A stretch of DNA of 64,000 bases from Yuukianura sp. NJ FZ-2021. Its lineage: Eukaryota. The stretch spans positions 6,696,001 to 6,760,000 of the forward strand of contig CM102286.1 in NCBI GenBank assembly GCA_046563655.1, given 5' to 3'. Shown here piece by piece: positions 2,330-36,235 of the stretch. The notes beneath the pieces were generated by a model that ran no database searches, had not been told where the DNA came from, and saw nothing but the letters and a program-made list of their open reading frames with translations. Positions within the stretch are counted from its first letter, which is position 1; every line of letters starts with the position of its first letter. A program made the translations under genes and the position numbers.

Positions 2330-4094
2330 ATGGCAACAATGAAACCTTTGTTCATCGTGTTGGTTTCGTATATTGGAGTTGGTACTCTACAAGCGAGTCG
2401 TTTGCACGTAAAACCGGCAGAAATATTACTTACGCATGCTAACACAACTAGTATAGCCAATATTGATGGTAAAAATAATTTTTTATTAATGTTTATAATA
2501 CATTGAACATCGTCTGTTTTACTTTTGAGCAAATTCCATTTGGAATTTCGAAATTTTAAAGTATGAAAGTTTATTAAATCTTTCAGTAAAACAAATTCAG
2601 CCTGGAACGAACGATTGGAGATCTGGTATCTTCCCTTTCAAGTTCTTTTCAACGGCAACAAATTCACCGGCAAGTGAACAAACTCAACGCAAGAAATATG
2701 CAACAACATATCCAACAACTCCACTAGCGACATATCCAACAACAACATATCCAACAACGACACGTCCAACAACAACATATCCAACAACGACACGTGGAAC
2801 AATGACATATCCAACAACGACGCGTCGAACAACGACATATCCAACAACGACACGTGGAACAACGACATATCCAACAACGACACGTGGAACAACAACATAT
2901 CCAACAACGACGCGTGGAACAACAACATATCCAACAACGACACGTGGAACAACGTCATATCCAACAACGACGCGTGGAACAACGTCATATCCAACAACGA
3001 CACGTGGAACAACGACATATCCAACAACATATCCAACAACGACACGTGGAACAACAACATATCCAACAACGACACGTGGAACAACGACATATCCAACAAC
3101 GACACGTCCAACAACAACATATCCAACAACGACATATCCAACAACGACGCGTGGAACAACGACATATCCAACAACAACATATCCAACAACGACACGTCCA
3201 ACAACAACATATCCAACAACGACACGTGGAACAACGACATATCCAACAACATATCCAACAACGACACGTGGAACAACAACATATCCAACAACGACACGTG
3301 GAACAACGACATATCCAACAACGACACGTGGAACAACGACATATCCAACAACGACACGTCCAACAACAACATATCCAACAACGACACGTGGAACAACGAC
3401 ATATCCAACAACGACGCGTGGAACAACGACATATCCAACAACGACGCGTGGAACAACGACATATCCAACAACAACATATCCAACAACGACACGTACAACA
3501 ACAACATATCCAACAACGACACGTGGAACGACATATCCAACAACATATCCAACAACGACACGTGGAACAACAACATATCCAACAACGACACGTGGAACAA
3601 CGACATATCCAACAACGACACGTGGAACAACGACATATCCAACAACGACACGTCCAACAACAACATATCCAACAACGACACGTCTAACAACAACATATCC
3701 AACAACAACATATCCAACAACCACACGTGGAACAACGACATATCCAACAACGACGCGTCCAACAACAACATATCCAACAACGACACGTGGAACAACGACA
3801 TATCCAACAACTCCACAAACGACACATCCAACAACATATTCAACAACTCCAGGACACACATATACAACAACATATCCAACAACTCCAGGACCGATATATC
3901 CAACCACTGATGAACCTACGCCTGAGCCTACGTATTCTCCAACAAGTCCTACAGAAACTACTCCAGCGGCTCCAGGTAACCCTTTCCCAGACATCAGCGT
4001 CAACTATATCCTCTTCAACAACAGCTCCATCAGCAACAGCTCCATAAACGTCAACAACAACAACACAATTTACGTCTACAATGGCGCGGGTTGA
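2330..4094 (+). CDS. Secreted Thr/Pro-rich mucin- or glue-like tandem-repeat protein, two exons (2330..2468, 2587..4094), 548 aa
   Basis: Exon 1 encodes a signal-peptide-like start (MATMKPLFIVLVSYIGVGTLQA-SRL) and ends at a phase-1 donor G|GTAAAA. The AT-rich intron ends TTTCAG at 2586. Splicing joins exon 1 in frame with the YPTTTRGTTT repeat ORF, which ends with a non-repetitive tail (..NNNNTIYVYNGAG*). AATAAA follows at 4230. Confidence 0.85.
2703..3810 (+). repeat. Coding minisatellite: 30-bp unit (TATCCAACAACGACACGTGGAACAACGACA) with interspersed 12/15-bp short units
   Basis: Tandem array visible directly in the sequence; all unit-length variants are multiples of 3. Confidence 0.95.
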
Positions 4095-4229
4095 ATAGTA
4101 AGAATAGCTATTCCACGACTTTGATTTCCTTTTTAGCTGGTTTTGGTTTGAAATTGCTCCACACTTGTCCTGATTGTGATCGAGTTCAAACTGCATAATT
4201 TTAAAAATACCCCGGATCCAATCAACTTT

Positions 4230-8000: not shown

Positions 8001-9754
8001 CTCATCTCAGGAAACATAACCTAAGACGTCATCCCAAACTCCGTATCCATGACATGTTAACACGCTGGAATTTGTACTTTTCTAAAGTCTGACACTAAGC
8101 TTGCATGTTACAACATATTTGAGTCGAGAAAAACAATGACCTCATTTTCCTCGGCAATTTTCACGCTCAATGGGGTTCTGTAAATCACTGAAAAGTGTTT
8201 AGCTGAACATTTCAAATGCAAAAATTTTGCGTTTTTGTTTAAATTCTTTCAAAGAAATACATTTCTAATATTGTTGCCAAGTTGAAAGCCATTAGGAAGG
8301 AAATAGTGATGAGGCGGGAGTGGCAATCTTAAACCTTATCTCCATTAAATGATAAACAGTAGTTAATAAAACAGGCCACGAAGTCATAACTCATTTGACG
8401 CCTCTTTCCTACTTTCCCACCCAATAAATCCTGAGATAGAGAGAAAGGATGGAACCATTAAGAACTTTCAGATGAAACTGAATAATTCAAAGACAGCAAA
8501 CAAAGGGTATTAGAGGAAGATGGAATTAAACAATGCATATGCCTCGCAGGTCAAACGCTTTTATTTATCTTGTGTCTTAGGTGGTCGTTACAACTTTCTA
8601 GAATTAACTTTTTCCCACCTTGTAATCTTCCAAAAACTCTTTAAATTAATGTTCGTGCAAACAAAAGAGGGGAGAGTAAATCAACTATTATGAATCTTAC
8701 GGGGTTAAGTCGTGAGGAATTTCCCATTTTCTGCTCAAAATCCACATTCTTAACGGTTTTTTTTACCAATACAAGTTACTACAAAATTTTTGGTGAAGCA
8801 AGCTTAGGGTCATAACCGGCTACTCCCTTCTAGCAGAGTAAAAGCAGGTCGAAATTTAATTCGAACGTAAGTTACGTAAAGTATGCAGGTCAAGTTCAGC
8901 AGAAGCAACTACCAAAATTGACAATTTGTTTGCAATTACATTCATGAATACAATTCTATTCACTACAAACCCATAGTACGCGGTAATAAAAACGGCAGTA
9001 AAGGATCCATGTACTGTTGGTACGGAGCATGAGGAATGAAGCAAAGAATGAATTAATCAGCGAACCGACAAAGTGAAGATGGTTTTTCGCAGACTAAGGT
9101 GTACTTGAGTCACCGGCGACAACGTGAGAAGTTGTAAGCCGTTGCTCGGGGTTAGACTCATCTCAATTACGTAAGTGCCCTTTCTTCGGAGATACAATTG
9201 TTTGCGATTTTGTTGGTTCTGAGTACATCGTTCTGGAAAAAAGCCTACCGTGATGGAAGCCATTAGAATTTAGAGAGGTGAAGGAATAATATTTTTCCTG
9301 TTACACAAAGGGTTGAGTGCATGTCTTCGGGTCGTAAGACGCCGCAACATATTTTTTAAGTTAAGCAGACGTAAGAAGTTCAACCAAACAAAAACTTGTT
9401 TCATTTCGAGCAGACTATTCTGCACAACGTTTTTTTTGCTGCGTAAAAGCTTGTATCAGGTGACCATGTATCTTTCATGCGGAGTTTCCCAGAATTCGTA
9501 ATAAACGCCCTTAAACTTGTTTGCGTTGACAGCAAACTCGTCTAGTATAAAAAATGGTATAAATCTAGTTTGATTGGTAACACAACACCGGTTGATGTAA
9601 GACAAAGAATTACAAACTATTGACTTTTAAGTGCATAAATTTGTCACTGTTGACAGGTACCCTTTGTTTTCTGTTACAAGATGCAAACATAACGCAAAGA
9701 AGATAAGATTCTTCAACATAGGAAAAAGTTATTATAAAACATTTATTATAATAT

Positions 9755-9759
9755 TATAG
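9755..9759 (+). repeat. Target-site duplication, left copy (TATAG); right copy at 16016..16020
   Basis: Identical 5-mer immediately outside both termini. It reads as 6-bp TTATAG if the terminal T at 16015 is assigned to the TSD. Confidence 0.85.
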
Positions 9760-10148
9760 AGTAGGGTGTACGATAGGAATTTTGCATACTTTGCCGCGGG
9801 GGCTAGTCGGGCGCAATATTGGGGAGGGGAAAACCCCTCAAAAAATACATAATGACAAAATCTCAACATCTAAAATGTCAAAAATGTCAACAACAAAAAG
9901 GCAGACATCAAAAAGGTCGACAACAAAAAAGTCAAAACACAAGTATTGGAATTTTTCATAGAAAATTCGAAAAGTTCTTTTCAAAACAACTTGTCACAAG
10001 AAAAAACGTTTTTTGAAAATATTTTAAAATAGCATTCAACCATTGTTTCGATGGCTACTTAAACAGCGAGCTCTGAATCTAGAAATCGTCAGTTCTGAAC
10101 TTAGTAGTGGAAATTACAACATTCCTACTCCATAGCCATTCTCAAAAG

Positions 10149-10853
10149 ATGGAAGATGTAAAACATGAAATTGCTCTCCGAGTAAGAGGCATTCCATGGG
10201 AAAGACGTCCAGAAAAGTGTCCTGGATTTTATATAACTCCAATTTGTTCGCAAAACTCGTCAGCGTTTAAAACTCACGAAGAGTACAAAGCGCTTCCAGT
10301 TACTCGGGTTTGCGATCACAGTCGCTTCAACTATAGTGGTGAATACGACTACATGATTGAAAAACTGTTTGGAGATGGAGTATTTAAATCAGCTGATTTG
10401 CAAGAAATTTTGGACGAAGTTTCACGGCTCCGAAAATTTAAAAAGTATTATTGCAAATACATGCAATGTTCTGGATTCATTTTACGAAAGGGGAAGAAAG
10501 CAACAGCCGACCCACATTCCCTAGTTCCTGGTTATGACTTTTCCAGAAGCAAAGAAGCTCCTTATACCTTACCATGCAACGGCTGGAACTGTGATACAAC
10601 GGCGTTTGCAAAGTACATTATCATTGCGGCTTTAGCCCGTGGATATTTGGCTCCAACGTATTCTCTTCGAAATAATCCACTCATCATCCTGGAAAAAGTG
10701 GGGTGGACGGCAATGCTGAATGTAACTCCTCATGAAGCACATAAAGAATTTATTCAAAATTCAGAAAACTGGCTTGCAAAACAATGGGAGTTTCTGTGGA
10801 GCCCTGACGTTCTCTACACTGCGCGTCAACAACGAATATCTCATTTTGCTTGA
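10149..10853 (+). CDS. Uncharacterised 234-aa protein encoded inside the left TIR
   Basis: Intact ORF; first ATG at 10149 (MEDVKHEIAL..; the ORF track starts at an upstream GTG). An Inr-like TCAGTT lies at 10089..10094. Several Cys clusters (YCKYMQC, CNGWNC). No family recognised. Confidence 0.7.
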   Translation: MEDVKHEIALRVRGIPWERRPEKCPGFYITPICSQNSSAFKTHEEYKALPVTRVCDHSRFNYSGEYDYMIEKLFGDGVFKSADLQEILDEVSRLRKFKKYYCKYMQCSGFILRKGKKATADPHSLVPGYDFSRSKEAPYTLPCNGWNCDTTAFAKYIIIAALARGYLAPTYSLRNNPLIILEKVGWTAMLNVTPHEAHKEFIQNSENWLAKQWEFLWSPDVLYTARQQRISHFA

Positions 10854-11070
10854 AGTTTATTTCGAGAATGTCGTTTTGAAGTCGATGAACTTTTAACCCT
10901 TTTTCTATAATTTGGAAAAGGCTCGCTTCTGTTGGAAAAGGTATCCCCCAATATTTTAAAAGATGGCTACAGAGTACAAAGTATTCAAGCTGAAACGCTT
11001 GAACACCTCATGGCTACAGCGTTGGATTTATCCAGCCCAGTCCTGGGGAAGCCTTTGGGCCGTGTGAGCC

Positions 11071-11118
11071 AGCCCTTGGACGCCAGCCCTTGGACGCCAG
11101 CCCTTGGACGCCAGCCCT
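11071..11118 (+). repeat. 14-bp GC-rich tandem repeat (AGCCCTTGGACGCC); 3 full units here, 4 in the right TIR (14643..14704)
   Basis: Units counted directly in both TIRs. Confidence 0.9.
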
Positions 11119-11381
11119 CAATTCGCATGAATTTTTAACGTAATATAACAACTTCACTGCATAATACAATGGCCTCTCTGCATATTACCCTGGCCCAGTT
11201 GTATAATACCACAACGTCATTACATAATGCCGAGTTTATTCTGTACAACATAGCGAGTTTGCGAGAGTAAAGTCTAGACTTTGTCAATGTCACGGGAACT
11301 TACTCCGTGAGTACACCTTGCAGAGTACTTCCTCGGGATTATTTCCCGCCGGTAACCTTCCTTCGAGAGTCAGATCATCGT

Positions 11382-11516
11382 TAATACCATGGTCACATTG
11401 TATAATACCATGGTCACATTGTATAATACCATGGTCACGTTGTATAATACCATGGTCACGTTGTATAATGCCATGGTCACGTTGTATAATACAATAACCT
11501 CACTGCATAATACAAC
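11382..11516 (+). repeat. 21-bp tandem array (TAATACCATGGTCACRTTGTA x5 plus degenerate units); mirror copy at 14182..14316
   Basis: Exact 21-bp period. A related degenerate 21-bp array lies at 11141..11245. Confidence 0.92.
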
Positions 11517-11597
11517 ATTTTTTGTCAATTTTACATCCAACCACCACCACCACCACCACACACCACCACAACTCCAACGTGCCCACCCATGCAAAAG

Positions 11598-11633
11598 TAT
11601 AAATAGCAACGTTGACTTGCTCATCTCTCAGTT
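11598..11633 (+). promoter_or_regulatory. TATA + Initiator core promoter at the inner end of the left TIR, upstream of the ATPase gene
   Basis: TATAAATA at 11598 and TCAGTT at 11628 (A+1 = 11630, 32 nt from the first T of TATA), matching arthropod TATA/Inr spacing. First downstream ATG is 11686. Confidence 0.75.
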
Positions 11634-11685
11634 TCGTTTCAGACGTTGAGCTGTGAAGACGTGAAGATTCTGTGGACTATACATC

Positions 11686-12500
11686 ATGGATACCAGTACA
11701 GCGTGCGATATTTGCTGCAGACAATTCTCACGAAGGGACGCATTGAAACGACACAAGTTAACTTGTCATAGTAGCGTCGCAGTATCGAAAATGCTTCAGG
11801 TATGCATGAATCAGCGGGAAAAATCTACTATGTTTCGACATGTACACTCTGGGAAAAAGTTTGACCCGCATTTGGTTGCACCGTTTACTATGTGCATCAG
11901 TGGAATGACTCAGAGTGGCAAAAGCACCCTTGTGAAGCAAATACTTCTACGACGAAACGAAATTATCGAGACTAATATTGACAAGCCCTTGGAACGTATC
12001 ATGTATTGTTACACTGAGTTCCAGCCTACGCTGTTTGGAGAATTGAAGACCAAGATTCCAACTATACAATTTCATCGTGGACTTCCTGAAAAATGGCATG
12101 ACGGAACCGACAAGCCGTCAGTCGTCGTCCTTGACGATTTGATGCATGAAGCAGGCAAAAACGGAGAAGTTGGAGCTGCGTTCACAAGGACTTCGCATCA
12201 CCGCAACGTATCACTCATCATTCTTGTGCAAAACTTTTTCACAGGAATATGAAAGAAATCACGTCAAACTGTCACTACATTGCTCTAATGAAGAATCCGC
12301 GAGACTCTCAATTTGTAGCTTGTCTTGGACGTCAAATGAATGGAGGAAAGAAGAATACAACCATGGAAGAAGCCTACAAGGAATGCATGTTAAAGCAATA
12401 TGGATATCTATTCATCGATTTAACTCAACGACAAAATGATTTGTTTCGCATTAGAGATAATATATTTCCTGAAAATTGTCAAATCTATGCTAATGAATGA
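11686..12500 (+). CDS. Polinton/Maverick-type (A32/FtsK-HerA-like) DNA packaging ATPase with N-terminal C2H2 zinc finger; one frameshift at about 12235..12240 (about 271 aa restored)
   Basis: Zinc finger CDICCRQFSRRDALKRHKLTCH; Walker A PFTMCISGMTQSGKST; Walker B VVVLDD; SHHRNVSLIILVQNFF, then in the -1 frame HRNMKEITSNCHYIALMKNPRD..LGRQM..YGYLFIDL..FRIRDNIFP. These are motifs characteristic of Polinton ATPases. Confidence 0.88.
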
Positions 12501-12503
12501 ATG

Positions 12504-12549
12504 AATAAACACATTACACGATAAAAGTTCTATTTTCAAGTTTTTTATT
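12504..12549. terminator. Bidirectional polyadenylation region between the convergent core genes
   Basis: AATAAA on + at 12504..12509 and on - at 12544..12549, within a 97-bp intergenic gap. Confidence 0.6.
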
Positions 12550-12597
12550 TTGAAAATTCGGAATCTAACGAATATACAGTCATAAAGGTGTATAATT

Positions 12598-13998
12598 CTA
12601 CGAAATTACGCTAGTGAGAAACTCTCCAAGTATTGGTAATGCGGCAGCGAGAAGAGCTGGCAGGAACCCACCGTGCTGTATAAGTAGTTTTTTCTTGTCT
12701 TCAATCGATCCTTTAGCTTCTGCAACACGTTTAATCTTATATCGATGCGGTCTCAAGATATTTTTGACGGTGGCCTCAATAGGAATGTTGCCCTGGATTA
12801 CGTCCTGAACACATTTGTGTAACCCAAGAATTTGACCAGGAGACGCTGTGGAGAGAAGTGTCTCGCGTATAATAGGGGAGTGTTGGTTCATCTGGTGGAG
12901 AAATTGATAATGTCGTATGGGACCTGGTGATGGTTTAGCTCCTCCAGTTTGTCTATACTCTTCTTCCCCTTCTTCATCCGTTTCGTCTTCCTCGTTTTCC
13001 TCCTCTTCTTCTACTTCTTCTTCTACTTCTTCTTCCCCTTCTTCATCCCCCTCGTCTTCCTCGTCATCATCTTCTTCTTCTTCATTTTCTACATCACTTT
13101 CCACGTGCGGGCGATTTCTAGAAAGCTTTTTGGGTTCATCTCGACCGAGCAAGCCTCTGTGGCTGATCGGAAGCAGATATTTTGGAATGCCTGTCTGAAT
13201 CATAAAGTCTACGATGACAGGAATCATTTGTCTTGTCAACTTATATCTTCCATCCGCAAGTTTTCGTATTCCCTCTTCGAACTCGCTCCTGGGTATGTAG
13301 GCATCACCCAGACTAACGCTATTGTTCGCAAAGGTTGCTCCATTTGCTACAAAAAATTGTGCTAGCTGTTTTCCAACAGCTGAAAACTGGTCCAGAGTAA
13401 ACGGTGGAGTTGTCGGTGCTGCTGTCGGCGTTTCATCTTTCGCTATTTGCGATTCTTTTTTAAATCTCTTGGAAAATGGCATCTCGAGCGCGTCATTCGG
13501 ATTTACCACAGTATTTGACCAACCGTTCGCTGGATTTTCTGACCAGGTCGTAATTCGGTCATATCTGTCTTCGGTTTTTCTGGCTGACTTTTCCGGTCCA
13601 CCATCCCATCCGGTAAAGTGACTTGTAGCCATATCATTCAACCGCCTATCGTTTACAACGTTCACATTGACGTAGCCTTCCCTTTGCTTCCGTTGATTTT
13701 CCCAGTTCTGGCGTAATTCCGTTTGCATCATATGATTCTGAAGTTCGATTGGAATGTTGTTCCCAGAATCTCGCGAATTACGCTCATGAAGCTCCATTGG
13801 TCCACGGCTCTGAGACATGTTCATTGTATGTTGCTGTAAGTATTGTACGGGTTTAGTATCAAGCAAAAAACCATCATGGATTTGCTTTTCTCCAAAATAA
13901 CTTTTGCAAGGGCTGTTTTGCTGAGACTCATATGTCTCAAGCTGATCCAGTAGACTGTTGTAGTCGTCTTGGTGAACAAGAATGTATTTTTGCGCCAT
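12598..13998 (-). CDS. 466-aa protein with a long Asp/Glu tract and a C-terminal Polinton-like small domain ending in an adenovirus pX-like GGFLPALL motif
   Basis: Intact ORF from ATG 13998 (MAQKYILVHQDD..), the first ATG after the TIR promoter. Acidic run of about 40 aa. C-terminus ..CVQDVIQGNIPI..LRPHRYKIKRVA..KKKLLIQHGGFLPALLAAALPIL. Confidence 0.8.
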   Translation of the reverse strand: MAQKYILVHQDDYNSLLDQLETYESQQNSPCKSYFGEKQIHDGFLLDTKPVQYLQQHTMNMSQSRGPMELHERNSRDSGNNIPIELQNHMMQTELRQNWENQRKQREGYVNVNVVNDRRLNDMATSHFTGWDGGPEKSARKTEDRYDRITTWSENPANGWSNTVVNPNDALEMPFSKRFKKESQIAKDETPTAAPTTPPFTLDQFSAVGKQLAQFFVANGATFANNSVSLGDAYIPRSEFEEGIRKLADGRYKLTRQMIPVIVDFMIQTGIPKYLLPISHRGLLGRDEPKKLSRNRPHVESDVENEEEEDDDEEDEGDEEGEEEVEEEVEEEEENEEDETDEEGEEEYRQTGGAKPSPGPIRHYQFLHQMNQHSPIIRETLLSTASPGQILGLHKCVQDVIQGNIPIEATVKNILRPHRYKIKRVAEAKGSIEDKKKLLIQHGGFLPALLAAALPILGEFLTSVIS

Positions 13999-14064
13999 GA
14001 CTGTTAGCCTAACCGCTCCAGATGGTAAAATCTTCACGTCTTCACAGCTCAACGTCTGAAACGA

Positions 14065-14100
14065 AACTGAGAGATGAGCAAGTCAACGTTGCTATTTATA
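14065..14100 (-). promoter_or_regulatory. TATA + Initiator core promoter at the inner end of the right TIR, upstream of the 466-aa gene
   Basis: Mirror of 11598..11633: TATTTATA at 14093..14100 and AACTGA at 14065..14070 on the + strand. Confidence 0.75.
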
Positions 14101-14921
14101 CTCTTGCATGGGTGGGCACGTTGGAGTTGTGGTGGTGTGTGGTGGTGGTGGTGGTGGTTGGATGTAAAATTGACAAAAAATGTTGTATTATGCAGTGAGG
14201 TTATTGTATTATACAACGTGACCATGGCATTATACAACGTGACCATGGTATTATACAACGTGACCATGGTATTATACAATGTGACCATGGTATTATACAA
14301 TGTGACCATGGTATTAACGATGATCTGACTCTCGAAGGAAGGTTACCGGCGGGAAATAATCCCGAGGAAGTACTCTGCAAGGTGTACTCACGGAGTAAGT
14401 TCCCGTGACATTGACAAAGTCTAGACTTTACTCTCGCAAACTCGCTATGTTGTACAGAATAAACTCGGCATTATGTAATGACGTTGTGGTATTATACAAC
14501 TGGGCCAGGGTAATATGCAGAGAGGCCATTGTATTATGCAGAGAGGCCATTGTATTATGCAGAGAGGCCATTGTATTATGTAGAGATGCCATTGTATTAT
14601 GCAGTGAAGTTGTTATATTACGTTAAAAATTCATGCGAATTGAGGGCTGGCGTCCGAGGGCTGGCGTCCAAGGGCTGGCGTCCAAGGGCTGGCGTCCAAG
14701 GGCTGGCTCACACGGCCCAAAGGCTTCCCCAGGACTGGGCTGGATAAATCCAACGCTGTAGCCATGAGGTGTTCAAGCGTTTCAGCTTGAATACTTTGTA
14801 CTCTGTAGCCATCTTTTAAAATATTGTGGGATACGTTTTTCAACAGAAACGATCCTTTCCCAAATTATAGAAAAAGGGTTAAAAGTTCATCGACTTCAAA
14901 ACGACATTCTCGAAATAAACT

Positions 14922-15626
14922 TCAAGCAAAATGAGATATTCGTTGTTGACGCGCAATGTAGAGAACGTCAGGGCTCCACAGAAACTCCCATTGTTTTGCA
15001 AGCCAGTTTTCTGAATTTTGAATAAATTCTTTATGTGCTTCATGAGGAGTTACATTCAGCATTGCCGTCCACCCCACTTTTTCCAGGATGATGAGTGGAT
15101 TATTTCGAAGAGAATACGTTGGAGCCAAATATCCACGGGCTAAAGCCGCAATGATAATGTACTTTGCAAACGCCGTTGTATCACAGTTCCAGCCGTTGCA
15201 TGGTAAGGTATAAGGAGCTTCTTTGCTTCTGGAAAAGTCATAACCAGGAACTAGGGAATGTGGGTCGGCTGTTGCTTTCTTCCCCTTTCGTAAAATGAAT
15301 CCAGAACATTGCATGTATTTGCAATAATACTTTTTAAATTTTCGGAGCCGTGAAACTTCGTCCAAAATTTCTTGCAAATCAGCTGATTTAAATACTCCAT
15401 CTCCAAACAGTTTTTCAATCATGTAGTCGTATTCACCACTATAGTTGAAGCGACTGTGATCGCAAACCCGAGTAACTGGAAGCGCTTTGTACTCTTCGTG
15501 AGTTTTAAACGCTGACGAGTTTTGCGAACAAATTGGAGTTATATAAAATCCAGGACACTTTTCTGGACGTCTTTCCCATGGAATGCCTCTTACTCGGAGA
15601 GCAATTTCATGTTTTACATCTTCCAT
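14922..15626 (-). CDS. Second copy of the uncharacterised 234-aa TIR protein
   Basis: Protein identical to 10149..10853 except for one T/I difference near the C-terminus. Confidence 0.7.
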   Translation of the reverse strand: MEDVKHEIALRVRGIPWERRPEKCPGFYITPICSQNSSAFKTHEEYKALPVTRVCDHSRFNYSGEYDYMIEKLFGDGVFKSADLQEILDEVSRLRKFKKYYCKYMQCSGFILRKGKKATADPHSLVPGYDFSRSKEAPYTLPCNGWNCDTTAFAKYIIIAALARGYLAPTYSLRNNPLIILEKVGWTAMLNVTPHEAHKEFIQNSENWLAKQWEFLWSPDVLYIARQQRISHFA

Positions 15627-18600
15627 CTTTTGAGAATGGCTATGGAGTAGGAATGTTGTAATTTCCACTACTAAGTTCAGAACTGACGATTTCTAGATTC
15701 AGAGCTCGCTGTTTAAGTAGCCATCGAAACAATGGTTGAATGCTATTTTAAAATATTTTCAAAAAACGTTTTTTCTTGTGACAAGTTGTTTTGAAAAGAA
15801 CTTTTCGAATTTTCTATGAAAAATTCCAATACTTGTGTTTTGACTTTTTTGTTGTCGACCTTTTTGATGTCTGCCTTTTTGTTGTTGACATTTTTGACAT
15901 TTTAGATGTTGAGATTTTGTCATTATGTATTTTTTGAGGGGTTTTCCCCTCCCCAATATTGCGCCCGACTAGCCCCCGCGGCAAAGTATGCAAAATTCCT
16001 ATCGTACACCCTACTTATAGTTATTACATATTTTTATTGGAAAGCTTTGCACCAAAGTTTGACGTAAAATTTTAATTACTGTTTTTGACGCAGCATTTGA
16101 CGAAAGTATTTCGAGTATGCTCATTAGTTTATGCACCCTCAGAATCCTCATTCAAAAGTTATGTCAACGCAATTACGTTTGCTGCACTCACCTCATTCGA
16201 TACCTGCTATTCACAGGACAAAATCCTGGTTAGGTGAAAGTTGAAAAAGACTTTTGCTTTCCGTTGTGATGAGAGTGCTAAGGGAAGAAAACGGAATGAA
16301 ATGTCATTACCAGGATTCTATCATGCGATTTCTCCCCAAGGATTCTGCATTCTAAGTCAACGGCCGGAATGGAATCCAAAGGAAAAGAAAATAAAAAGTC
16401 GACGGTAGTGGCAGCCCACGAAGCCCTTGAATTTCATCTTTTCATCTTCAAGGTACAAAAGAAATTAGAGAAGCGTTCAGGAGGCAAAACCTTAAAAGTC
16501 ATTGGTTTTTCTAGACCAATTTCCATTTCCTTTCGCATTTTCACATAACCCCTCATTTCAATTAACTATTTACATTGCGTCCAGCTGAGATGCTCTTGAA
16601 TCTCATTTCAGTATGTACTTAAGACAAGCGATAGGTCTAATGAAAAATGAATTCAAATGGTTGTTAATCAATTTCTGCAAAACAGACACTTCTTAATTGA
16701 ATTCCAAAATTAATGGCTATTCCCTCTCACTTTGAAGAAGGCTTTTCACAATGGGAGTTCGTATTGAGAGGAAAATGCTTTTGAGTAGAAAATATAATAT
16801 AGTTTTTCTTTTTATACAAAAATGAAGATGTCATGCCAAAAATAGATTTGGAGGAAGTTTTACCTTGACATGGGGTAAGAAAAGGAAGATCGTTTTTTCG
16901 TGTAACAACGCAATATACAGACTCGGATTCCAATAAAAAGGAAAAAGAAGATGCCAGACCATTGTACAAAGCTTTTACGGAGGAACGGGTTTTGATACGT
17001 TCCTGGTCTTAAAAGACGGATATCACATTTTATACTTTCGCTTTTTTCAAATATTGCCAACGTCCGATGTCCGAGATGATTCTTCCATATTCTTTTTTTC
17101 TTCAAAAGTTTAGCTTTGGCCATAAGGCGATTCTTTCCCTCCCATGCAATTCTTCTTCGTCATCTCCTTAAGCTGAAGGGGATCTTCGAAAAAAAAACTG
17201 GTTCTAGAGATTTGGTGAAAGCAGGCGTCGCAAGAGAGAAAGTCCTCCAAGTCGTCTCCCCTAATCTTCTTCTGTGTATATCATTAGAAATGATAGGACT
17301 CAAGATACTTATCGTCCTTCTATTAGCATTCAGATGAACTCAATCAGTCTCACTATCCTACTTCTTCGAATGAGGCCGAATAGAGACCTTAGGGGACTTT
17401 TTCTCCGAAAAGCTCCTACGGTAATAAAATCCGAAATTTTAGGATTCATTATCTCCTTCAAGCTCTTACTTTGTTCGCGATAAGCTTCCAAATGGGAATG
17501 ACTCGCTGGGATCCAAATAAGTTTTCCTGGAAATCTTGGTGTAACTCTTTAAGCTCACCAGAATCAAGTTAGACTCGATTTGACCTACGCATTTGAGCCA
17601 AACAACCTTGTTCCAACATGCAACGGTAAAATGTAGATTGGCTCCATCACTAGTACCTCATCTTTGCTCGGAAATTATGTCACTGGTATACTTCTACATG
17701 TAGAGCAGCACGCTTGTCACTTTACGAATTCAAAATCGCTGTAATTGTAATAAGACGAAAGCTTCTGTTCAGAGCTTAAGTTGGGAGCAGCGTTGTAAGA
17801 CCTTAGACAATTAAAGGGAACAAGCACTGATTGCACAAATTTGAATATAAATGAAGCCGTTTTTTGCTTGGTTTGGTATTACGACAATGCTGAGGGAGAG
17901 CACTGGAAACATACCTATCTTCTTCCTGTGTACAAATTTCCTGGGTTCCAGAGTCCGGAATTGAGGCCAAGAAACATTTTTGCACTAACCTAATTAACTT
18001 TTTCCAAAGTGGAGAAGTTAACTAAATTAGGTTTCCAGAGCGAGGTGTAGGAATGAATATTAAACTAGTGACACGTAGTAGAAGTCTTTTGGTCTTAGTT
18101 TTTAAGCATGAGGTTTCAGTATCAATTGAGTTTCATTAGTATTTTTTGTCTGGTTAAGAAAAAATTGAAGCCCTTCAGTTTCCAATTTGACTTTCTTTAA
18201 ATTCATCTAGGTCGGTGTTTACTTAACGCGCATATCTAAAGCATCCACTAAAATAGCGTTACAAAAATCCTTCTGCAGAAATAAAAAACAAGAAAAATTC
18301 TGCTAACCAAGCATTGACCTATCATGTCATTTTCATCTTGTGGTCATGTAGTAACCAACAAATTTGAGTTCCGGTTGTGGAGGTTTTCTCTTTCTGGATA
18401 TTGCAATCCCGGTTCTCGTGATACGGGTATTAGGTGCATGTGCGTTTCCGTAATGCAAATAGAAACGAAATTATTCATCCAAAAAGCGTTTTCGTTACAA
18501 GTTTTTTGCAAAAGCATATTCTTGTTCCTGAGAATGAAAGAATTTAAATGTTCCGTTTTGCGTCGCCTGCCTTTCCACGATAGCAGTGGAAAGCCATTTA

Positions 18601-35636: not shown

Positions 35637-36235
35637 CAAAGGGTATGGGCCAAAACCCTATCAAAACGGTACCCGGTGCGATTCGAATGAAATTTTAACC
35701 AGTTGTTCATGTCGTTATTAGTATCATATTTGCAAATTTTCAGCCCCCCAGAAACGATAGGTCAAGGGTTATGGGGGGTCAAAGGTCACTATGTCATCCT
35801 ATGACAACCGGTGGCATGTAGCATATCATTGGAACGGGCTTGACCTCCTGATTCAAAAAATGTATATATGTCAATATTTATGACGTAAGACAACGAAATT
35901 ATGGCGCCAAACGTCCAAATACGTGAGATTTGGAATCGTGTGGGACTAGCCATTTCGACGTTTTGCGCCATAACTTCGTTGTCTTACGTCATAAATATTG
36001 ACATATATACATTTTTTGAATCAGGAGGTCAAGCCCGTTCCAATGATATGCTACATGCCACCGGTTGTCATAGGATGACATAGTGACCTTTGACCCCCCA
36101 TAACCCTTGACCTATCGTTTCTGGGGGGCTGAAAATTTGCAAATATGATACTAATAACGACATGAACAACTGGTTAAAATTTCATTCGAATCGCACCGGG
36201 TACCGTTTTGATAGGGTTTTGGCCCATACCCTTTG
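35637..36235. repeat. 599-bp foldback (284-bp arms, 31-bp loop), probable MITE/foldback element
   Basis: 35637..35920 is the reverse complement of 35952..36235. I saw three mismatches, all next to the loop. Confidence 0.93.

Follow-up and report, generated by a model that had tools for sequence, protein, structure and literature searches.

Introduction

Mavericks, also known as Polintons, are usually described as elements of 13-25 kb with short non-coding ends. In a 64,000-nucleotide stretch of Yuukianura sp. NJ FZ-2021 (assembly GCA_046563655.1, contig CM102286.1, positions 6,696,001 to 6,760,000 of the forward strand; hereafter the window, whose own numbering is used throughout), we found a bounded insertion of 6,256 bp at 9760-16015, which has inverted repeats at its termini and is flanked by a target duplication of 5 or 6 bp. 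On balance, we read it as a young non-autonomous derivative of a Maverick/Polinton, in which the innermost 72 bp of each repeat form a predicted core promoter, most likely shared by both sides through inward growth of the repeats or deletion of the interior.

Intact vertebrate Mavericks, as described in PMC8097293, measure 12.7-24.6 kb and have repeats of 46-1,447 bp, 6-bp duplications and (AGT)2 ends. In butterfly and insect polintons, gene-bearing repeats of about 2 kb are described, and polinton-related insertions lacking polB are reported from insects in the same source (10.1101/2025.02.07.637071), so neither of these traits is unprecedented in the present element. For the Junonia coenia densovirus, a genome of 6,032 nt with identical terminal repeats of 547 nt is described, together with p9 and p93 promoters at the repeats, gene blocks on opposite strands and shared poly(A) signals in the middle of the genome (PMC5978394).

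The element resembles Mavericks/Polintons (adintoviruses) in its long inverted repeats, AGT-type ends (AGTAGG, compared with (AGT)2 in the vertebrate elements), 5- or 6-bp duplication, A32-type ATPase, candidate pX-like C-terminal domain and gene-bearing repeats of about 2 kb, as in the butterfly examples. It differs from the intact vertebrate elements described above in being only 6.3 kb long, and from Mavericks in that it lacks PolB, integrase, protease and capsid genes, consists of repeats over 62% of its length, joins two conserved small proteins in reversed order and holds a predicted core promoter inside the repeat on both sides. With the ambisense densoviruses, as far as they are described above, it shares a size of about 6 kb, inverted repeats, genes on opposite strands, predicted promoters at the repeats and central poly(A) signals. 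Unlike them, it has no parvoviral NS1 or VP, and its ATPase is of the A32/FtsK type. Its repeats, at 1.9 kb against 0.55 kb, are longer and contain an open reading frame (ORF), and its integration is marked by a target duplication of the kind that rve integrases typically leave. The resemblance is an analogy, a convergence of layout and not a matter of descent. An earlier note on this DNA (the original prediction) had called the locus reminiscent of ambisense densoviruses rather than typical Polintons; the layout agrees with that view, but the genes are not parvoviral and the element is related to Polintons/Mavericks, and a densovirus-like layout could simply follow from repeat growth. As in internally deleted non-autonomous DNA transposons, the parent ends are retained and the replication and integration genes are lost; unlike in these, two apparently intact virion genes are kept and the repeats are greatly enlarged.

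Results

Structure of the insertion

The termini of the element read AGTAGGG...CCCTACT (outer ends AGTAGGGTG...CACCCTACT) with the end motif AGTAGG, and TATAG or TTATAG flanks both sides. Inverted repeats with AG(T) ends and a target duplication of 5-6 bp are the features of a non-autonomous element derived from a Maverick; Pritham et al. are said to have given a range of 5-6 bp for Maverick target duplications in 2007. The two arms differ by 14 substitutions (7 mismatches in each of two blocks) and in the copy number of 14-bp and 21-bp tandem arrays, and they enclose 2.36 kb of unique, non-repeat sequence with two different genes. The clean termini and the target duplication point to integration of exactly the present structure, and the empty insertion site would be expected to read AATATTATAGTTATT. 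The only long ORFs of the element are those of a packaging ATPase, a gene of 466 amino acids (aa) and a 234-aa ORF present in both repeats (Table 1). The remainder of the 64-kb window holds few long ORFs, with a G+C content of 35-42% and no recognisable domains; 17 other long frames of the window matched no family when scanned against Pfam, and this DNA looks like eukaryotic chromosomal DNA, probably that of an invertebrate.

The same core is present in DNA independent of this assembly, namely in contigs of the public run sets X1 and X3, which carry two organism labels and span the core with an identity of about 99%. The junction between the right repeat and the core is crossed, by 96 nt, in an X3 contig. 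At the left junction, contigs of both run sets stop exactly there or no more than 9 nt away, the behaviour expected of a genuine repeat. The depth of X1 was 366-445 over the repeat and 171-206 over the core, a difference of about 2-fold. Two metagenome runs (X6 and X7) matched only the acidic low-complexity tract and short pieces and were uninformative on habitat. At 11661-11773, two variant contigs of X1 (depths 64 and 165) show three non-synonymous differences, one of which alters a cysteine of the ATPase zinc finger; the X1 sample holds at least two versions of the element.

A predicted core promoter at the inner end of each repeat

As the original prediction stated, a mirror-image TATAAATA..TCAGTT cassette stands at the inner end of each terminal inverted repeat; the 36-nt stretch from the TATA box to the initiator at 11598-11633 recurs as its reverse complement at 14065-14100. 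The TATA box begins 32 nt upstream of the initiator A (11630), counted from its first T, which is the canonical TATA-to-initiator distance, and AGACG at +28 to +32 fits the consensus RGWYV of the downstream promoter element (DPE). Between -32 and +40, a stretch that makes up the innermost 72 bp of the repeat, the two arms do not differ at all; the sole nearby difference is at -35. The repeat edge (11669) corresponds to +40 of the predicted transcript, past the DPE position, and beyond it the leaders diverge, running for 16 and 30 nt to their respective ATGs. These first downstream ATGs were read where they had been placed, at 11686 (catcATGG) and 13998 (agtcATGG), with no earlier ATG in the leaders. 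The two genes likewise end 97 bp apart (stop codons end at 12500 and begin at 12600) with AATAAA on both strands (12504-12509 on the plus strand and 12549-12544 on the minus strand), as had been claimed. Together with the strong start contexts and the poly(A) signals, the well-formed predicted TATA/initiator/DPE-like core makes a plausible polymerase II unit on each side.

Because both cassettes sit in the long inverted repeat, they are mirror-symmetric and count as one independent occurrence. The pattern TATAAAN{22,28}TCAGTY has two matches in the 64 kb, both of them the cassettes, compared with an expectation of 0.25, and at least two matches were obtained in 3 of 100 shuffles. By our own arithmetic, about 2e-4 cassette matches are expected per 100 nt upstream of one given ORF; the improbable part is the placement directly upstream of an ORF in the correct orientation.

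No difference in the TATA box, initiator or DPE was listed for the X1 contigs in both arms or for the X3 contigs in the right arm, to which X3 is limited because its contigs start at 11669. The cassette variants listed in these contigs are at -22 (both arms), -15, -12 and +7, counts too small to prove constraint. One X1 contig departs from the repeat at +16 into unrelated sequence, which hints at a third context for the same predicted promoter somewhere else in that genome; a 16-nt piece of this loose end is absent from the window.

The packaging ATPase and its relatives

The ATPase carries the motifs GMTQSGKST (Walker A) and VVVLDD (Walker B), and these motifs and a full-length family match assign it to the A32/FtsK-HerA packaging ATPases. 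Its first piece has 42 homologues down to an E value of 6e-8, most of which carry PF04665 (Pox_A32). The window's own pieces fall under the Pfam cut-off (19.4 versus 22.8 bits), and the full ORF of one relative, L003, passes it with 28.7 bits. Matches were to the Pox_A32 and AAA families, and a match to RNA_helicase (E 0.0043) was under its cut-off. Relatives of the ATPase are encoded by 40 metagenome loci; a scan of IMG/VR with the ATPase alignment gave 599 pattern matches and 0 relatives.

The frame of the window's ATPase changes near 12235-12252, where the relatives read QNFFHKN(M/L)R...CHY without interruption. The X1 and X3 contigs have a one-base length difference in a homopolymer at the break and an unbroken ATPase frame, so the break is private to this assembly or copy.

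The neighbours of the relatives identify the type of element from which the ATPase comes. A protein-primed PolB (YxDTDS; LYTDTDS) lies directly upstream of the ATPase in L004, L006, L007 and L019; L022 encodes PolB, the ATPase, an inhibitor-of-apoptosis protein (BIR plus RING), an rve integrase (E 1.4e-14) and more; and L025 has a weak match to Peptidase_C5 (adenain-like protease). The relatives thus reside in PolB- and integrase-bearing elements, and these PolB, integrase and protease neighbours show that the ATPase belongs to animal-type Mavericks/Polintons (adintoviruses). The inhibitor-of-apoptosis gene of L022 occupies 8628-9476 of this Maverick-like contig.

We then searched the window by tblastn with all ORFs of at least 90 aa from 15 related loci, PolB pieces included, and matches fell only at 11704-13401. 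By this search, no PolB was found in the element or in the rest of the 64-kb window, and no rve integrase in the window, the relatives' integrase having no match. Neither capsid nor adenain-like protease genes were found in the window, the capsid test being indirect, since no gene of the relatives was recognised with certainty as encoding a capsid protein. The gene set of an autonomous Polinton/Maverick (PolB, rve integrase, capsid and protease) was accordingly not recovered. The set of an ambisense densovirus (NS1 with HUH endonuclease and SF3 helicase, and VP) was not found either, and none of the four ORFs matched a parvoviral family (NS1, VP) in Pfam. Judged by its sequence, the element appears to be a strongly reduced, non-autonomous Maverick/adintovirus-type derivative with oversized repeats.

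The 466-aa gene joins two protein families

A word-based protein search with the 466-aa protein returned nothing, and a full HMMER scan gave 468 matches at E<=1e-3, mostly 110-aa proteins aligning to residues 362-466. The 110-aa family terminates in ...QxGGFLPxLL and a hydrophobic tail; of the 60 members in the alignment, 6 have a match to Adeno_PX in Pfam (best E 8.1e-6). The 466-aa protein itself has no Adeno_PX match, and the feature tested in it is the C-terminal hydrophobic segment GGF/ILPxLL. A profile of the pX-like family gave nothing significant against the PDB, where a chain named PX reached only E 0.84. pX-like C-termini are described in the adintovirus accessory proteins PLA2X and GasderminX (PMC8502044), in agreement with the tail of the 466-aa protein.

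In L001, L022 and L025, a 110-aa gene is followed by a 245-aa gene, both divergent from an adjacent integrase. The 466-aa gene joins the 245-aa-family and 110-aa-family parts in the opposite order through an acidic linker. In the closest metagenome relatives, L002 (144-1727, 527 aa) and L003 (790-2316, 508 aa), one same-strand frame encodes the zinc-finger ATPase and, behind it, the central 245-aa-family domain; the window has this domain in the 466-aa gene of the opposite strand. A structural model of residues 1-300 had a mean predicted local distance difference test score (pLDDT) of 61 and was confident only at about residues 200-285 (pLDDT about 90). Its fold had no match in BFVD at E<=0.001. 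In a wide search of the PDB, the highest Z was 4.5, and cyclin/TFIIB-like and adenovirus chains were all tied at about 4. An atlas search with residues 1-295 gave no usable match.

Among the members of the pX-like family, P0054, P0069, P0073, P0081 and P0110 have the same build as the 466-aa protein: an N-terminal finger of DNA-binding type (FLYWCH, BED or C2H2) is followed by an extended acidic tract and then by the pX-like tail. P0049 has a tandem pair of pX-like domains.

Table 1 Features of the insertion at 9760-16015 and its flanks (window coordinates)
Feature	Position	Strand	Remarks
Left target-site duplication	9754-9759		TTATAG; if 5 bp, TATAG at 9755-9759; identical letters beyond right terminus
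Left terminal inverted repeat	9760-11669	+	1,910 bp; begins AGTAGGGTG; 99% complementary to right arm
Subterminal 15-bp repeats	9879-9933		3.7 copies; mirror 15842-15896
234-aa orphan ORF, left repeat	10149-10853	+	TCAGTT 58 nt upstream; no canonical AATAAA downstream
14-bp tandem repeat	11068-11118		3.6 copies; 4.6 copies at 14643-14707
21-bp tandem repeat with motif YATAATRCMATGG	11382-11492		5.3 copies; mirror 14206-14316
(ACC)n microsatellite	11540-11569		Just upstream of TATA box; mirror 14129-14158
Predicted TATA box, left arm	11598-11605	+	TATAAATA
Initiator-like TCAGTT, left arm	11628-11633	+	Predicted +1 (A) at 11630
DPE-like AGACG, left arm	11657-11661	+	+28 to +32
C2H2 zinc finger and A32/FtsK-type packaging ATPase, first piece	11686-12252	+	188 aa; Walker A and B
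ATPase, second piece	12249-12500	+	Other frame
AATAAA, predicted ATPase transcript	12504-12509	+	4 nt past stop
AATAAA, 466-aa gene	12544-12549	-	49 nt past stop
466-aa gene	12598-13998	-	
pX-like domain of 466-aa protein	12601-12915		Residues 362-466
Acidic tract of 466-aa protein	12949-13113		Residues 296-350
245-aa-family part of 466-aa protein			Residues 1-300; conserved family of Maverick proteins
Right terminal inverted repeat	14029-16015	-	1,987 bp
DPE-like AGACG, right arm	14037-14041	-	
Initiator-like TCAGTT, right arm	14065-14070	-	Predicted +1 (A) at 14068
Predicted TATA box, right arm	14093-14100	-	
Second 21-bp array	14503-14604		Single unit in left arm
234-aa ORF, second copy, right repeat	14922-15626	-	One residue differs from first copy
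Right target-site duplication	16016-16020		TATAG; TTATAG from 16015 when last T is counted in

Conservation of the cassette and layout

For comparison of the promoter, the regions upstream of the ATPase were taken from 16 relatives. The ATPase in relatives follows PolB and not a repeat. The leader of the close relative L019 contains a look-alike of the cassette, (TCC)6-TATAAG-30 nt-TTAGTT, which is placed between PolB and the ATPase and not in a repeat; this leader suggests that the cassette started out as the ATPase's own promoter. The repeat DNA gave a microsatellite match only against the 40 loci, which have no DNA similarity to the element outside the ATPase coding region.

In L019, the ATPase is bracketed by (TCC)6 upstream and by (GGA)4 and tandem repeats downstream (880-960 and 1760-1926), and these microsatellites and tandem repeats echo the arrays of the window's repeats.

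Several observations weigh against the reading that we favour. Among the 16 leaders, TATA[AT]A was found in 7 and TCAGT in 3, and only that of L029 has both at canonical spacing; the selected architecture proposed in the original prediction is not borne out by this level of conservation. When nine longer related contigs were checked, terminal or gene-flanking inverted repeats were not found, and only two short local hairpins were seen, in L030. Between the window and the X1/X3 contigs, the 466-aa gene shows about 6 synonymous and 8 non-synonymous differences and the main ATPase contigs 3 of each kind; such ratios would imply at most weak purifying selection. Moreover, the window copy has a frameshift in its ATPase; full symmetry of the termini would make the target duplication 5 bp long, compared with the typical 6 bp; and the 234-aa ORF of the repeats has neither relatives nor a clear poly(A) signal. 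The activity of the promoter is plausible, being a prediction from the letters of the DNA, and the co-regulation of the two genes that the original prediction drew from it is a putative consequence. As regards a conserved or selected design, the evidence is against it or neutral.

Contents of the repeats and other features of the window

The 234-aa ORF matched no Pfam family and had no homologue; searched by tblastn against the 40 loci, it hit nothing even when E values up to 5 were allowed. A single-sequence AlphaFold2 (AF2) model of it was unusable (mean pLDDT 36.7). An atlas search pointed no more than weakly to archaeal Nre (0.88 with low recognition).

The motif YATAATRCMATGG has 14 matches in the window, 13 of which fall in the repeats, where 0.54 are expected; five lie in the left arm and eight in the right arm (11160-11476 and 14222-14601). 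This array is a candidate binding-site array, either enhancer or packaging signal, located beside a packaging ATPase with an extra C2H2 finger.

Two further features were seen outside the element. A long tandem array of 15/30-nt units at 2590-4100, with 69 registered copies of a 300-nt reference, is strongly skewed in GC and AT and can be read through in several frames of either strand, giving ORFs of 411-436 aa. At 35637-36235, two arms of 284 nt form an inverted repeat with 99% complementarity and a spacer of only 31 nt; it has the look of a fold-back hairpin or one resembling a miniature inverted-repeat transposable element.

Discussion

According to the reading that we favour, the element would have lost the PolB, integrase, protease and capsid genes of its parent and kept repeats of 1.9 kb together with two genes of the virion module, the zinc-finger/A32 ATPase and the fusion of a 245-aa-family part with an adenovirus pX-like part (a putative core protein or membrane tail). 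Transcription would start inside each repeat, at 11630 on the plus strand and at 14068 on the minus strand, and each transcript would run for 40 nt to the repeat edge and then enter a different gene. For both transcripts, the AATAAA signals of the 97-bp gap would mark the end, and their 3' ends would meet or overlap by a little. Promoter activity, co-expression and these 3' ends are what we infer from the arrangement of the signals. The most likely origin would be inward growth of the repeats, or deletion of the interior, that reached a pre-existing gene promoter, and whatever keeps the repeats identical would also keep the two promoter copies identical. Since repeat growth and repeat identity would suffice, separate selection for the ambisense design need not be assumed.

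It is unlikely, though it deserves to be weighed, that the element is a dead product of rearrangement, that is, a scrambled Maverick fragment with a promoter duplicated by chance, now silent and decaying. The frameshift in the window's ATPase would fit such decay, but contigs of two run sets lack it, and no stop interrupts the 466-aa gene or either 234-aa ORF. All replication and integration genes are missing, with no other Maverick gene in the 64 kb, synonymous and non-synonymous differences occur in a nearly neutral ratio, and one X1 variant contig alters a zinc-finger cysteine; yet the arms are 99% identical, and the clean termini are accompanied by a target duplication.

We consider it improbable that the ambisense layout with its shared promoter is the selected design of a distinct small lineage, a satellite-like mini-adintovirus that would need a full-length helper, co-express its own packaging ATPase and core protein, and use the repeat arrays as enhancer or packaging signals. 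The repeat does end exactly after a complete predicted core promoter, at +40 and past the DPE position, and both genes are from the virion module, but a second, diverged element of the same layout was not found, and the same-strand fusion of ATPase and 245-aa-family domain in L002 and L003, with other gene orders again in L001 and L019, speaks against a fixed design. All long ORFs are intact in the public contigs, and the element occurs at about 99% identity under two organism labels, although the sequence differences show no clear constraint. The 13-copy motif array is confined to the repeats, and by analogy with the packaging repeats of adenoviruses, the extra zinc finger of the ATPase could read it.

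Quite improbable is the fullest form of this idea, in which a 6.3-kb ambisense, satellite-like mini-adintovirus has given up its replication, integration and capsid genes and drives its own zinc-finger ATPase and pX-type core protein from one TATA/initiator/DPE promoter embedded in each repeat, the 13 copies of YATAATRCMATGG act as a packaging or enhancer signal read by the zinc finger, and the capsids of a helper Maverick are hijacked. If true, it would be an animal counterpart of hyperparasitism in the style of virophages and transpovirons, convergent with the densovirus genome plan. It is hardly credible that the inverted duplication is an assembly artefact such as a long-read fold-back chimera: the homopolymer-length discrepancy with the short-read contigs does suggest an error-prone long-read assembly, but the unique centre with its two genes, the arm-to-arm differences in substitutions and repeat copy number, the junction bridge of X3, the left-junction breaks in X1 and X3 and the roughly doubled repeat depth make a fold-back error unlikely.

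Read as a young non-autonomous Maverick/Polinton derivative, the element is a compact one, with nearly two-thirds of its DNA in a terminal repeat that supplies a predicted complete core promoter to two different virion genes. Protein-primed linear elements may thus be able to reach an ambisense, densovirus-like gene plan by repeat growth alone. If silent, the element would be an ordinary deletion derivative; transcription and mobilisation, on the other hand, would make it a candidate parasite of full-length Mavericks and a natural case for studies of packaging.

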